50,563 bases of DNA from a virus (IMGVR_UViG_3300045988_105923), one strand, 5' to 3'; counted from the stretch's first letter, positions 47,403-50,502 are shown. The notes: a model not told the origin generated them from the sequence alone. Made by a program: numbers and translations.

Positions 47403-47469
47403 GGAGGACGTGAGGATTCAAGGGTTGGTACACGTCGCCGCCCTCCTCACGGACTCCTTATTTTTGTTG
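47403..47469 (+). terminator. Terminator-like hairpin in front of the cargo operon (leader, attenuator or insulator)
   Basis: GGAGgaCGTGAGGA (47403-47416) pairs with TCCTCACGgaCTCC (47444-47457). It is followed by TTATTTTTGTTG. Confidence 0.45.
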
Positions 47470-47485
47470 CAAAGGACGTGTTATT

Positions 47486-47656
47486 TTGCTTGTGAATGGG
47501 TCTGAGCTTGTCAAGCGGCTGGTGGCCTGCGGATATACAGCATCTTCAGCGGAGGACATATGCCAGCGATACGCCGCAGCGGGAAATTTCTCCGGGCTGG
47601 AGACCTTTATCAAACAAATAGAGCTTCTTTATGATGACAGAAAGGAGTATGCATGA
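47486..47656 (+). CDS. Possible 56-aa first gene of the cargo operon
   Basis: A TTG start lies 9 nt after AAAGGA. The product reads ...NGSELVKRLVACGYTASSAEDICQRYAAAGNFSGLETFIKQIELLYDDRKEYA. The stop overlaps the next ATG as ATGA. Confidence 0.4.
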   Translation: MLVNGSELVKRLVACGYTASSAEDICQRYAAAGNFSGLETFIKQIELLYDDRKEYA

Positions 47657-48138
47657 TGGCATTCCCTAACTATACTTATCCGGCTTACGGAGGCTACAAC
47701 CCCGTGACTCCATTTGCCCCGGCACCACAAGTATATCAGCCCCAGCAACCGCCTCAACAGCCTTCGCAGGCCGTGCAGCCTCAGGGAAATGTAAACACAC
47801 AGCCCACCTTCTTCTGCCGCCCTGTGGCTTCCAGGGAGGAAGCTCTGGGAGTTCCGGTTGACTTCATGGGAAATCCCATGTTTTTCCCGGACCTGGCCCA
47901 TAATGTGATCTATATGAAGCGGTTCAATACCAACACCGGCGCGGCAGATGTGTTTGAGTTTCATAACCAACAACAGGCACGGGAACAGCAGGCGGAGAAT
48001 CCGGTCCCTGCCTTCGCGCCTCTGGATGAATTTATGGATATGAAAGACACCATCAACAATCTCAAAGAGGAGATAGAAAGGCTGAAAAAGCCCGCTTCTA
48101 TCGGAAAGGCGGGAAAGAAAAATGATGCCGATGAATAA
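47653..48138 (+). CDS. Hypothetical protein with a P/Q/Y-rich N-terminus
   Basis: An AAAGGAG RBS precedes the start. The N-terminus NYTYPAYGGYNPVTPFAPAPQVYQPQQPPQQPSQAVQPQ is followed by a globular core and a coiled-coil tail. Confidence 0.65.
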   Translation: MMAFPNYTYPAYGGYNPVTPFAPAPQVYQPQQPPQQPSQAVQPQGNVNTQPTFFCRPVASREEALGVPVDFMGNPMFFPDLAHNVIYMKRFNTNTGAADVFEFHNQQQAREQQAENPVPAFAPLDEFMDMKDTINNLKEEIERLKKPASIGKAGKKNDADE

Positions 48139-48364
48139 TCCCATGATGGCTATGCTCCAAATGATGCGGGCAGGGAGGAATCCTATGCAGCTCCTCCAAC
48201 AGATGGCAGGGCAAAACCCGCAGGCGGCTCAGGCTATGAGACTTATCCAGGGGAAAAACCCACAACAGCTCCAGCAGATCGCGGAGAATATGGCGAAGGA
48301 GCGGGGAATCTCTATTGACGATCTTGCCCGGCAGCTTGGTGTGTCGATTCCAAGCAGCAGATAA
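48122..48364 (+). CDS. Hypothetical M/Q/N/P-rich small protein
   Basis: It has repeated NP-x-Q-x-x-Q-Q-M-like segments (NPMQLLQQMAGQNPQAAQAM, KNPQQLQQIAENM). Confidence 0.55.
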   Translation: MMPMNNPMMAMLQMMRAGRNPMQLLQQMAGQNPQAAQAMRLIQGKNPQQLQQIAENMAKERGISIDDLARQLGVSIPSSR

Positions 48365-48471
48365 CTTTATAGCATCTTTTTCAGTTTTCGGGTCTTGATA
48401 AAAACCGCTCTTTGGAAACATCCGGGGAGCGTACGGCCCCGATGTAATAACTGATAAAGGAGTATCTACAA

Positions 48472-49236
48472 ATGGATAACGATTTTGCGACCGGCTATGC
48501 GCTGGGAAGCGATTCCAACGGCGGCAACTGTAACAACGGTTTCGGTGGCGGTGCTTGGGAAGGCATTTGGGGCATCATCATTCTGGCTATGGTATTCGGC
48601 TGGGGTCGCGGAGGCTTTGGTTTTGGCGGGTTTGGAGGCGGTGCATCCGACAGTCCTGGTCTGCAGGGCCTTGCAACCCGCGCCGACGTGCATGAAGCTA
48701 TCGCCTTCAACGGCGTGGAGCGTGGAATTCAGGGCATCCAGCAGGGCATCTGCGACAGCACGTTTGCTCTGAACAACACCATGACCAATGGCTTCCACGG
48801 GGTAGATACGGCTATCTGCAATCTGGGCTATCAGACTCAAACCGGTTTTAACTCTCTGGGCGCACAGCTGGCGCAGTGCTGCTGCGATACCCAAACTGCC
48901 ATTCAGGGAGTCCGGTATGATATGGCTACTCAGGCCTGCGATACCCGCAATACCATCCAGAATACCACCCGTGATATCCTGGAAAACAACAATGCCAACA
49001 CGCGCGCGATTTTGGACTACCTTTGCCAGGACAAGATTTCTAGCCTCCAGGCAGAGAATCAGTCCCTGAAGCTGGCGGCCTCCCAGGCGGCCCAGAACGC
49101 CTTTATTACAGCAAATCAGGAAGCGCAGACTGCGGAACTCATTCGGCGTATCAACCCCATGCCTGTGCCTGCCTACCAGGTGCCCGCGCCTTATCCCTAC
49201 TGTGGGACCTATAATGGCTGCGGCTGTGGCTGCTAA
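48472..49236 (+). CDS. Gly/Cys-rich membrane-associated protein with a YjcZ-like N-terminus
   Basis: An AAGGAG RBS precedes the start. The segment GGNCNNGFGGGAWEGIWGIIILAMVFGWGRGGFGFGGFGGG resembles YjcZ-type sporulation peptides. Cys-containing repeats of roughly 20-25 aa follow, then a coiled coil and a C-terminal CGTYNGCGCGC. Confidence 0.7.
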   Translation: MDNDFATGYALGSDSNGGNCNNGFGGGAWEGIWGIIILAMVFGWGRGGFGFGGFGGGASDSPGLQGLATRADVHEAIAFNGVERGIQGIQQGICDSTFALNNTMTNGFHGVDTAICNLGYQTQTGFNSLGAQLAQCCCDTQTAIQGVRYDMATQACDTRNTIQNTTRDILENNNANTRAILDYLCQDKISSLQAENQSLKLAASQAAQNAFITANQEAQTAELIRRINPMPVPAYQVPAPYPYCGTYNGCGCGC

Positions 49237-49281
49237 TCAGTAAGAACCACTTACATCTTCCGGCTTTGCCGTGACTATTTC

Positions 49282-49318
49282 GGGGCGGCAGGCTGAACGT
49301 CTGCTGCCCCTGATTTTT
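49282..49318 (+). terminator. Intra-operon intrinsic terminator or attenuator
   Basis: A 10-bp stem pairs GGGGCGGCAG with CTGCTGCCCC (one G-U pair). It is followed by TGATTTTT, just before the RBS of the next gene. Confidence 0.6.
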
Positions 49319-49329
49319 GGAGGAGTAAT

Positions 49330-49725
49330 ATGTCTTGTAAACCTGTATGCAAACTGTGTGACCGTCTGGTGATCTCTCAGGCTGTCACCTTTACCGGTGG
49401 AAATCTGGAGATCAACCTTCCCGCTGGCGCCTATAACAACGGAGAGAAATACTGTATCGTTGTTTCACAGGCCATTCCGGACACTGCTACCATTAATGCT
49501 CCGGTGTACATCACCATCGGCACAGGAACTACCCTTTATCCACTGACCAAGCGTACCTGTGCTCAGGTTAATGCATGTGGAATCCGTACACGCACCCGCT
49601 ACTCTGTCTGTGTAGTAACGACGCCAACCGGTGGCTCGTTCCGTATGCTGGGCCAGCCTTGCTGCTCCCCCAGCAACAATCTTGCCAGCATCGACGGTGG
49701 TACCGCACCAGCACCTACGGCGTAA
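49330..49725 (+). CDS. Cys-rich beta-rich small protein of unknown function
   Basis: A GGAGGAG RBS precedes the start. The N-terminus is MSCKPVCKLCDR and there is a C-terminal CC. The composition is reminiscent of spore-surface or appendage subunits. Confidence 0.65.
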   Translation: MSCKPVCKLCDRLVISQAVTFTGGNLEINLPAGAYNNGEKYCIVVSQAIPDTATINAPVYITIGTGTTLYPLTKRTCAQVNACGIRTRTRYSVCVVTTPTGGSFRMLGQPCCSPSNNLASIDGGTAPAPTA

Positions 49726-49737
49726 GGAGGCAGCAGA

Positions 49738-50502
49738 ATGAAAAAATCTACACGAATGATGTTGATGTCCGGAAGCCGCAGAAACTATGATGTGGAAGAT
49801 CGTGGGTATCGCCGTTACTCTGATGGCCGCTTTGCACCTCGCAATGAAAGCGACATGTGGGTGGAGGATAAGTTCCGTGACCGTCGTGGCCGCGAGCACT
49901 ACGATAATGGCCGGTATGCTCCCATGAGTTATTACGACGAACACTTGCACGGAAACTATGGCGGCCCAGAGTCCCACTACCACATGACCCCCTATGTGCC
50001 TCCGGTCTATCAGGATGGCTCCATGCGCCACTATGATCGGGACTACTCTCTGCGACCCATGAATAAGATTGGCTTTTCCATGGAGGGGGAGATGAACAAA
50101 ATCCCGCCTGAGTTCAGCCACGATTATCGTGGTGACGAGATGGCGTACCGTCGCGGAGGCGAGCGCATGAGCGGCTATGGCTACGGTTCTGGTGTTGCTC
50201 CGTTTAGCAGAGAAATGGCTGAGGAGTGGACCCGGGAAATGAAGAACGAGGACGGCACTACCGGCCCTCACTGGACGATGGAACAAACCAACCAGATCAT
50301 GACGCAGAGGGGAATCAACTGCGACCCTGCGGAGTTCTACGCTGCTATGAACATGGTCTATTCCGATTACAGCAAGGTTGCTAAGAAGCTCAATGTCAGT
50401 AACATCGACTTCTATGCCGAAATTGCGAAAGCGTTTCTGGATGACCAGGACGCCGCTCCCGACAAGCTTGCTCGGTACTATGAGTTTGTCGTGAAGCACT
50501 GA
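49738..50502 (+). CDS. R/Y/H/D-rich low-complexity protein with a conserved-looking C-terminal helical domain
   Basis: An AAGGAGG RBS precedes the start. The N-terminal half is rich in RDRRGREHYDNGRYAP-type sequence. The C-terminus reads GPHWTMEQTNQ...MNMVYSDYSKVAKK...FYAEIAKAFLDDQDA. Confidence 0.7.
   Translation: MKKSTRMMLMSGSRRNYDVEDRGYRRYSDGRFAPRNESDMWVEDKFRDRRGREHYDNGRYAPMSYYDEHLHGNYGGPESHYHMTPYVPPVYQDGSMRHYDRDYSLRPMNKIGFSMEGEMNKIPPEFSHDYRGDEMAYRRGGERMSGYGYGSGVAPFSREMAEEWTREMKNEDGTTGPHWTMEQTNQIMTQRGINCDPAEFYAAMNMVYSDYSKVAKKLNVSNIDFYAEIAKAFLDDQDAAPDKLARYYEFVVKH

Follow-up and report, generated by a model that had tools for sequence, protein, structure and literature searches.

The 3' end of the viral contig IMGVR_UViG_3300045988_105923 (50,563 nucleotides; this whole stretch is called the window below) carries six co-oriented genes, named here p1 to p6, which together make up an accessory cassette of gut phages that is self-contained and moves horizontally. 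The conserved core of the cassette is the p4-p5 pair, which is usually preceded by p2-p3 and is often followed by p6 or by an R/G/S/Y-rich substitute. No described system matches the cassette. Scans of the six proteins against Pfam, PHROGs, NCBIfam, and PADLOC returned DUF7841 and unnamed PHROG families only, and the structured leader ahead of p4 has no family in Rfam. The initial annotation of this region, made from the sequence alone, had likewise been unable to place the set in any known system, and on this point the searches agree with it.

A mobile cassette with a p4-p5 core

Synteny was assessed at 65 loci taken from one-genome-per-species bacterial genomes, and the adjacency of p4 and p5 on the 60 of them with enough flanking sequence. 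The p4 gene lies directly 5' of p5 in 59 of these 60, and the gene order is colinear in 65 of 65, so that the gene set is syntenic and not scattered among relatives; homologues of every cassette open reading frame (ORF) are conserved in matching order at other loci. Around the conserved cassette, most tail and lysis genes bear no relation from one locus to the next, and the presence or absence of the cassette varies among related phages. The homologue clusters of p4, p5, and p6 are all unnamed and come from gut Clostridia or Caudoviricetes. Profile searches recovered p2 in 47 and p3 in 40 of 53 loci, and a p6 of the DUF7841 type is found in 25 of the 53.

The most conserved gene of the cassette is p5, with a median identity of 71% over the 65 loci, 3827 clusters at 90% identity, and occurrences on at least 581 IMG/VR contigs. 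Its product begins with MSCKPVCKLC and contains nine Cys and 13% Thr; across the wider family, C10 alone is nearly invariant and the other Cys are not conserved. The p5 profile, run against 1.84 billion representative proteins, retrieved 351 relatives only, all small and stand-alone, with no informative fusions, and neither Pfam nor the PDB yielded a relative by sequence and profile searches. A low-confidence AlphaFold2 (AF2) model, with a predicted local distance difference test (pLDDT) score of 57, suggests a beta-rich protein; Foldseek with this model returned nothing at E < 0.07 and is uninformative because the model is poor. Neither a signal peptide nor a lipobox was seen by eye in the p5 sequences of the Clostridia-phage loci or in the p5-like ORFs of four crAss-like or Bacteroides phages.

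The second core protein, p4, is Gly-rich (14%) and contains 12 Cys, and its residues 31-45 form the only strongly hydrophobic stretch. This Gly-rich hydrophobic segment is followed by a long N/Q/T-rich helical region with Cys repeats and a CCC motif, by a Pro-rich stretch, and by a CGCGC C-terminus. The protein matches phrog_16490, a PHROG without assigned function, at E 2e-82 over nearly the whole profile, and its homologues, which make up at least 8000 clusters at 90% identity, are known in C. perfringens, crAss-like, and Bacteroides phages; the Cys clusters are conserved in those of C. perfringens and Bacteroides phages. The p4 proteins of Bacteroides phages have a p3-like N-terminal segment; it proved to be a weak compositional match (5-8 bits) and was not used for topology. 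In Bajarodcaudo virus 2 (L075, PQ006093.1), a 248-nt insert at 6451-6698 splits p4 within the hydrophobic segment; it starts after U, ends in G, contains no ORF, and matches the Rfam model Intron_gpI below the gathering score (23.5 bits, E 4e-4), and its excision restores a 293-aa ORF. A p4-family protein annotated phrog_16490 (profile E 3e-16) is also encoded by vir335 (L166, BK063680.1, 4860-5783), and the family reaches archaeal viruses if the predicted host of vir335, Methanomassiliicoccales, is right.

The last gene, p6 (R 9%, Y 9%, nine His; 835 clusters at 90% identity), encodes a disordered half with the conserved motifs FRDRRGREHYDNGRYAP, YVPPVY, and RPMNKIGF, followed by a domain that matches Pfam DUF7841 (PF25223) at residues 143-249 with 123 bits against a cut-off of 25.2 (E 9e-36). 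AF2 models residues 150-254 at a pLDDT of about 90, with disorder N-terminal to them; the fold matches nothing in the PDB, neither sigma factors nor others, and it agrees with crAss-like DUF7841 proteins at a root-mean-square deviation of 1.5-1.9 A. DUF7841 was found by tblastn in 16 crAss-like records, which correspond to 13 different phages, and the R/G/Y-rich tail is a trait of the whole family, crAss-like members included. At locus L025, a 151-aa protein with a G/S/R/Y-rich disordered centre (8402-8857) replaces the DUF7841-type p6, and at about nine loci (e.g. L016, L044, and L049) a helical ORF of about 60-100 aa is inserted between the p4 hairpin and p5.

Upstream of the core, p1 keeps the motif RL..G(Y)P...A..I....G.L..FI..E in about 11 loci and has no family match in the Pfam, PHROGs, and NCBIfam scans. 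The p2 protein (P 12%, Q 9%) contains a conserved domain of about 55 aa, RPV.S.EEA...PD..HG.IY.K..N..TG, and matches one unnamed PHROG family weakly and no other, while p3 (Q 16%, M 15%) has only sub-threshold helix-turn-helix (HTH) matches in Pfam. The odd compositions that the initial annotation had described are borne out by residue counts, and the ORF listing places all six genes on the + strand as it had proposed; the coupling that it had noted is confirmed as well, the p1/p2 overlap (ATGATG) and a 17-nt p2/p3 overlap both being visible in the sequence.

The setting of the cassette changes from phage to phage. At loci L001-L004 it has a CHAP endolysin gene upstream and a tyrosine integrase gene downstream, elsewhere it borders on host genes or a tRNA where the prophage ends, and its neighbours overall are CHAP or amidase endolysins on the one hand and tyrosine or serine integrases or tRNA attachment sites on the other. 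In Bajarodcaudo virus 5 it follows a holin and an endolysin; in Bajarodcaudo virus 2 it lies between portal and major capsid, after a YadA-like gene; and in the cultured C. perfringens siphophages XP41-N3 (L160, 6048-7852) and CPD1 (L161, 4400-6834), p2-p3-p4-p5 stand between antirepressor and Gam/Erf genes, with a like-type hairpin after p4. The C. perfringens phage versions of p2 and p3 were recognised at E 2e-11 and E 6e-20, respectively. Bajarodcaudo viruses 5 and 2 and XP41-N3 have no annotated integrase. Cultured carriers comprise the C. perfringens phages CPD1, XP41-N3, 17DYC, HMD-PC1, and PMQ04 and the Bacteroides uniformis phage C3_41T2LP, in which the cassette gene lies beside recombination genes and encodes a p4 homologue (profile E 4e-40) that ends in PAPIPAYCVPNPNCC...CGCGC and is followed by a small ORF.

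The families also occur side by side in crAss-like phages. In cr4_1 (L159, 5950-7993), consecutive genes encode a DUF7841 protein whose tail is rich in R/G/Y, a clear homologue of p4 (profile E 4e-33), and a remote p5 homologue (profile E 6e-9), and the p4 homologue has a like Gly-rich anchor, the CCC motif, and a CGC C-terminus. The DUF7841 gene adjoins the p4 homologue in cr53_1 (L163, 5886-7923) too, and a p4 homologue is present in cr116_1 (L164, 6632-7957); in both phages, a small ORF after p4 is p5-like by motif only, and the genes come after one for a holin and one for a lysis regulator or carboxypeptidase. The p4/p5-like pair is found downstream of genes annotated as holin or lysis regulator in cr4_1, cr53_1, and cr116_1. 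Some crAss-like reading frames contain in-frame stops, consistent with stop-codon recoding.

This distribution qualifies the proposal that the operon is lysogenic-conversion cargo: a discrete accessory operon does stand at the junction of lysis genes and integrase, but the label is too narrow for a cassette that also occurs elsewhere in the genome and in phages for which no integrase is annotated. With the morons and lysogenic-conversion cassettes of Gram-positive temperate phages it shares the form of a discrete unit at the prophage end, with a promoter-like element and flanking terminators, next to an integrase or tRNA attachment site, and it shares the variable presence and the mosaic flanks. 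It departs from them in that the restriction to temperate phages fails, in that it comprises four to six genes with a dedicated regulator and apparent RNA-level gates, and in that the position of this regulator argues against expression in the lysogen.

Putative gates on cassette expression

The small gene sig, which encodes a sigma-70 region-4-like HTH protein and adjoins the endolysin gene, is the presumed regulator of the cassette. The protein matches Pfam Sigma70_r4 below the cut-off (E 0.0045), and its 78-aa counterpart in Bajarodcaudo virus 5 (L074) passes it with 26.7 against 24.1 bits; both match region 4 only and are too short for region 2, unlike TcdR/UviA-like sigma-70 factors. Homologues of sig sit ahead of the cassette in relatives, so that the sigma-like gene to which the initial annotation had drawn attention beside the operon indeed travels with it. 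It directly follows the endolysin in the window and at L001, L025, and L074, where the endolysins differ, and a second type of small HTH gene occupies the same position at other loci. In the window, an NYN-domain gene on the - strand (46639-47205; Pfam E 7e-16), which also matches the PADLOC NYN and HEC-09 models, is inserted between sig and the cassette promoter; as it is absent from the same place in relatives, it may be a separate defence-type moron.

In most loci, the interval from sig to the cassette shows by eye, in this order, direct repeats, a hairpin with a T-run, and an extended -10-like element, and the succession of a T-run and a TGnTAnAAT-like element recurs 5' of p1 or p2. This element, TGCGACAAT in the window, would drive the cassette's own transcript. 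It looks like a housekeeping extended -10 promoter (sigma-A-like), unlike those of sigma-E, K, F, and G, and sporulation-sigma motifs and Spo0A boxes were not seen in the conserved upstream regions on inspection by eye, no formal scan having been made.

The hairpin ahead of the operon (47403-47469 in the initial annotation, which took it for a terminator) is real, but its identity is different: it corresponds to the RAGATH-31 RNA (Rfam RF03101). The match covers the full model (positions 1-54 of 54; fold z = -3.3), and three related loci (L005, L007, and L009) have full-length matches above the gathering score at the equivalent position. As the RNA begins a few nt 3' of the extended -10-like element, it probably lies at or near the 5' end of the transcript. 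Rfam lists RAGATH-31 as a small RNA without assigned role; here it stands ahead of p1, and the seven loop nucleotides ACACGTC (47430-47436) could pair with GACGTGT (47475-47481) at the ribosome-binding site of p1, a complementarity that was found by eye in about 14 loci, including hairpins below the Rfam threshold.

A second candidate gate is the leader of p4. A 13-bp long-range helix, P1, pairs 48372-48384 with 48451-48463 and buries the Shine-Dalgarno (SD) sequence GGAG (48459-48462); the anti-SD arm begins 8 nt past the p3 stop, with the SD of p4 about 70 nt downstream. An anti-SD partner is present 63-95 nt upstream of p4 in about 30 loci, at a constant distance, and the enrichment across loci concerns p4 alone, with none for p2, p3, p5, or p6; an anti-SD pairing for p5, suggested by the fold of the window, was rejected, since it showed no such enrichment. 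Covariation in P1 was assessed by anchored arm extraction and pair counting: 85% of the cells pair, compared with 77% after shuffling and 42-60% in slid controls, and 49 double changes were counted against 23.6 in shuffled data; none of 500 shuffles was as high. A MAFFT alignment of the leader, in which the 3' parts are misaligned, yielded no structure with RNAalifold. Inside the leader lie the conserved blocks GGTCTTGAYAAAAACCGC, GGGAGCGYRCGGCCC, and TGTAAATAA and internal hairpins that admit two competing pairing schemes. Other loci have a short form of the leader with a single hairpin. Long-range helices that sequester a downstream SD are known from the MS2 coat/replicase region and some ribosomal-protein operons, and the p4 leader resembles them in that an anti-SD arm pairs with the SD with compensatory changes across loci; it differs in its additional conserved hairpins and blocks, among them GGTCTTGAYAAAAACCGC and TGTAAATAA, and in that opening of the helix by ribosomes is, for p4, a presumption.

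Lastly, hairpins separate p4 from p5. The internal terminator that the initial annotation had placed after p4 corresponds to a real and conserved GC hairpin, the best terminator-like site of the region (z = -3.9), and is compatible with the graded expression that it had suggested. The p4-p5 hairpins are kept with compensatory changes in most loci and stay with the 3' end of p4 when an extra ORF is inserted before p5.

Possible roles of the cassette

The co-orientation with late genes, the frequent place after lysis genes, the apparently strict gating, and the carriers without an annotated integrase suggest an assembly in the productively infected cell. The reading preferred here, to which we give a probability of roughly 0.35, is that the cassette encodes a membrane-anchored assembly formed at the end of the late programme, leaning toward a role in lysis, egress, or the envelope. 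Specifically, the direct repeats, to which sig would bind, and the extended -10 promoter would fire the cassette's own transcript, and the RAGATH-31 loop would pair with the ribosome-binding site of p1 in a regulatory role; p4 would be translated only once ribosomes run through p1-p2-p3 and open the P1 helix, while the hairpin after p4 would lower or separate the expression of p5-p6, whose level would then differ from that of p4. The p4 protein would cross the membrane once, by a Gly-rich anchor that resembles a fusion peptide, and would continue in a long helical stalk up to a tip rich in Pro and Cys; p5, as a small conserved beta protein, would dock on p4 through complementary Cys clusters, and p2, p3, and p6 would act as low-complexity helpers. 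No cassette protein looks like an enzyme, and p2, p3, and p6 are largely of low complexity; the assembly would be non-enzymatic, anchored in the membrane of the infected-cell envelope, and specific neither to spore-formers nor to lysogens. Remodelling of the cell surface by the cassette is possible. A bolder version, doubtful when all its parts are taken together, holds that p4-p5 is an undescribed machine that phages of Clostridia, of Bacteroidota, and possibly gut archaeal viruses share, with p2/p3 and DUF7841 proteins as helpers; a fusion-protein-like membrane stalk with a beta-protein cap would, as infection ends, target the host envelope or the material set free, and would thereby provide a new step of lysis, egress, or post-lysis protection, gated by sig, the RAGATH-31 leader, and the anti-SD helix.

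Among the closest parallels of such an assembly are two-component spanins (Rz/Rz1) and class I viral fusion proteins, with which p4 has in common a hydrophobic anchor near its N-terminus, a predicted long helical stalk, and Cys. Like spanins, p4 often stands directly downstream of holin and endolysin, and in crAss-like genome records p4 goes under the depositor name "spike protein/glycoprotein". Unlike spanins, the cassette has no lipoprotein partner, p5 being devoid of a signal peptide or lipobox, and its link to lysis genes is not universal; the Pfam and PHROGs scans found no sequence or profile match to spanin families. The host clade of the window is presumably monoderm and would lack an outer membrane that could be fused.

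Several points weigh against the envelope assembly. Its functional part is read from anatomy and gene neighbourhood, with no homology to characterised proteins; the timing of expression is read from gene order, and the promoter and the regulator-binding repeats from the sequence by eye. The link to lysis genes fails in Bajarodcaudo virus 2, the C. perfringens phages, and C3_41T2LP. Since p5 has no signal peptide, an external p4 stalk with a p5 tip would need an export route, and none can be named; moreover, the Cys of p5, through which docking would occur, are not conserved in the wider family beyond C10. Lastly, p4 homologues are annotated "spike protein" or "viral fiber" by the depositors of crAss-like genomes, which makes a virion role a live alternative.

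Under that alternative, p4 would be a fibre or spike of coiled-coil type, or else an ejection protein that inserts into membranes, and p5 a tip or decoration domain with a mucin-like tail, p6 and p2 would be assembly or internal proteins, and the Cys would stabilise an extracellular component of the particle. Depositor annotation, not experiment, is the source of the labels "spike protein/glycoprotein" and "outer capsid protein/viral fiber" in the records of crAss-like and Bacteroides phages; yet the p4 homologues so labelled lie just 5' of genes annotated as virion structural and tail-tubular, the cassette of Bajarodcaudo virus 2 lies among head genes after the YadA-like gene, the genes are co-oriented with late genes everywhere, and an N/Q/T-rich helical composition together with a T/P/A tail is in keeping with fibres and decoration proteins. 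What makes a virion role rather unlikely is that the cassette moves among phages with unrelated head, tail, and lysis modules, so that its docking partner on the particle would need to be generic; that its own regulator and its predicted promoter and translational gates would be unusual for structural genes; that p4 has a transmembrane-like segment; and that in C. perfringens phages and C3_41T2LP its neighbours are early or recombination genes.

The membrane anchor predicted for p4 would also suit superinfection exclusion or receptor masking, in which p4 and its partners would keep other phages from adsorbing to lysogens and infected cells or from bringing DNA into them. Exclusion genes are known in temperate and virulent phages alike, and the place at the prophage end by the attachment site, the predicted promoter and terminators of its own, and the variable presence among related phages are in line with this idea. 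It is nonetheless improbable: p1-p6 and sig match no PADLOC defence model significantly, the only such match being to the unrelated NYN gene on the opposite strand; p5, at its median identity of 71%, far exceeds the conservation usual for proteins in an arms race; most known exclusion systems consist of one gene, compared with four to six genes and three regulatory layers here; and the regulator, lying within the late operon, speaks against expression in lysogens.

A role away from the envelope, as an intracellular host-takeover or anti-defence module in which, for example, p2/p3 are regulators and the DUF7841 domain and RGG-like tail of p6 attach to nucleic acid or to RNA polymerase, takes its appeal from the annotation "RNA polymerase sigma factor/ubiquitin-like" of crAss-like DUF7841 proteins, from the sub-threshold HTH matches of p3, and from phages in which early and recombination genes surround the cassette; a tail rich in R/G/Y is a typical mark of proteins that bind nucleic acid. 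However, the sigma-factor annotation is a weak depositor guess, the DUF7841 fold matches neither sigma factors nor anything else, the invariant core of the cassette is p4-p5 and not p6, and p4 has a clear hydrophobic anchor, all of which leaves a takeover module very improbable.

The initial annotation had read the operon as prophage-carried, Cys/Tyr-cross-linked proteins of spore coat, exosporium, or appendage type that remodel the spore surface of the host or interfere with sporulation. The compositions and the absence of signal peptides do resemble coat and exosporium proteins. Like Ena1/DUF3992, CotY/CotZ/ExsY, and CdeC, p5 is small, beta-rich in its low-confidence model, and provided with an N-terminal Cys cluster, and the Gly-rich hydrophobic segment of p4 and the Tyr/His/Arg-rich low complexity of p6 recall spore surface and YjcZ-family proteins. 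Moreover, the only phages found to have the full p2-p5 set are those of the class Clostridia, which includes endospore-formers, and one host contig carries spo0A, spoIVB, and spoVA beside the prophage. Against this, no spore-protein model in Pfam and NCBIfam, including DUF3992/Ena, YjcZ, CotJ, CotY/Z, and GerQ, is matched by p1-p6. Specifically, p5 does not match Pfam DUF3992 at E <= 1, nor do any of 42 diverse p5 relatives at E <= 0.1, and Pfam searches with these relatives and with the variant cassette proteins gave no functional lead; no NCBIfam or Pfam model of the YjcZ family or of tiny transmembrane sporulation proteins is matched by p4 at E <= 1, so that its likeness to YjcZ is compositional only. 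Sequence and profile searches of the PDB found no relative, and neither did fold searches with p6 and, on a model too poor to be informative, with p5. The literature on DUF7841, RAGATH-31, and the C. perfringens carrier phages yielded no functional data.

The distribution of the families is equally at odds with a spore role. In crAss-like phages the p4, p5-like, and p6 genes are neighbours, and a cultured Bacteroides phage has p4 with a small ORF after it; the hosts of these phages are non-sporulating Bacteroidota, so that the "spore-like" compositions, including the R/Y/G-rich one of p6, are traits of phage families that cross host phyla. Together with the carriers that have no annotated integrase, the poor conservation of Cys in the p5 family, and a promoter that by eye is sigma-A-like, these results make a spore-directed function highly improbable.

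Genomic setting and significance

By the ORF listing and family scans, the window is a complete temperate siphophage genome (Table 1). Its bases 1-77 are identical to 50487-50563, and this 77-bp exact terminal direct repeat indicates that the contig is circularly closed and that the phage genome measures about 50,486 bp. The lysis genes that the initial annotation had placed upstream of the operon are confirmed, and the adjacency to the serine integrase on the other side follows solely from the circular map. Between p6 and the integrase lie the p6 terminator and an AT-rich imperfect inverted repeat that may include attP. Just 5' of the lysis genes, an ORF of 112 aa (43544-43882) with no Pfam match is kept in many cassette loci despite differing tail and lysis genes. 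Two further RNAs score above the Rfam gathering threshold, GP20-b (25334-25393), just 5' of a head-region ORF, and int-alpA (19599-19669), just 5' of the ORF at 19666.

Table 1. Annotated features of the window (positions counted from its first nucleotide)
Feature	Position	Strand	Description
Serine integrase	118-1479	-	family scan
Primase/helicase	from 10558		family scan
Large terminase	20757		family scan
Portal	21914		family scan
Major head protein	26590		family scan
Tape measure	32555		family scan
Small ORF read as holin	44691-44894		matches to unnamed PHROG families only
Amidase_3 endolysin	44878-46221		upstream of the operon; family scan
sig, small sigma-70 region-4-like HTH gene	46236-46481	+	81 aa; starts 15 nt past the endolysin
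Bidirectional terminator-like hairpin	46517-46538	.	closes the lysis/sig transcription unit
Short hairpin with T-run, then extended -10-like promoter TGCGACAAT (47386-47394)	47362-47394	+	hairpin scan; promoter by eye
RAGATH-31 RNA (Rfam RF03101)	47403-47457	+	5' leader hairpin of the operon; 79.5 bits, gathering score 71.8
p1	47486-47656	+	56 aa; TTG start; helical; translationally coupled to p2
p2	47653-48138	+	161 aa; P/Q/Y-rich N-terminus, helical C-terminus
p3	48122-48364	+	80 aa; Met/Gln-rich, helical, NPxQ-type repeats
p4 structured leader	48365-48471	+	107-nt p3-p4 spacer; fold z = -3.0
p4	48472-49236	+	254 aa; predicted single-pass membrane protein
p4-p5 hairpins	49260-49318	+	small hairpin 49260-49271; strong GC hairpin 49282-49310 with T-run to 49318; hairpin scan, fold
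p5	49330-49725	+	131 aa; N-terminal Cys cluster, motif ACGIRTRTRYS, T/P/A-rich tail
p6	49738-50502	+	254 aa; disordered R/Y/H/D/G-rich half, then DUF7841 helical domain
Operon-closing terminator hairpin	50510-50533	+	z = -7.2; inside the 77-bp terminal repeat, before the integrase end

By the cluster and contig counts given above for p4 and p5, the cassette is among the commoner unexplained gene sets of gut phages. The idea that a phage remodels spores by means of it is tempting and is now unsupported. The cassette spans host phyla, and its p5 protein keeps 60-90% identity where the phage genomes otherwise differ, which indicates a strong and host-independent constraint. Furthermore, the orphan Rfam motif RAGATH-31 gains a genomic and mechanistic context, and an unlisted structured leader that hides a ribosome-binding site, that of p4, is added to the RNA elements of these phages. 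Since the carriers include cultured phages, the function of the cassette is directly testable.

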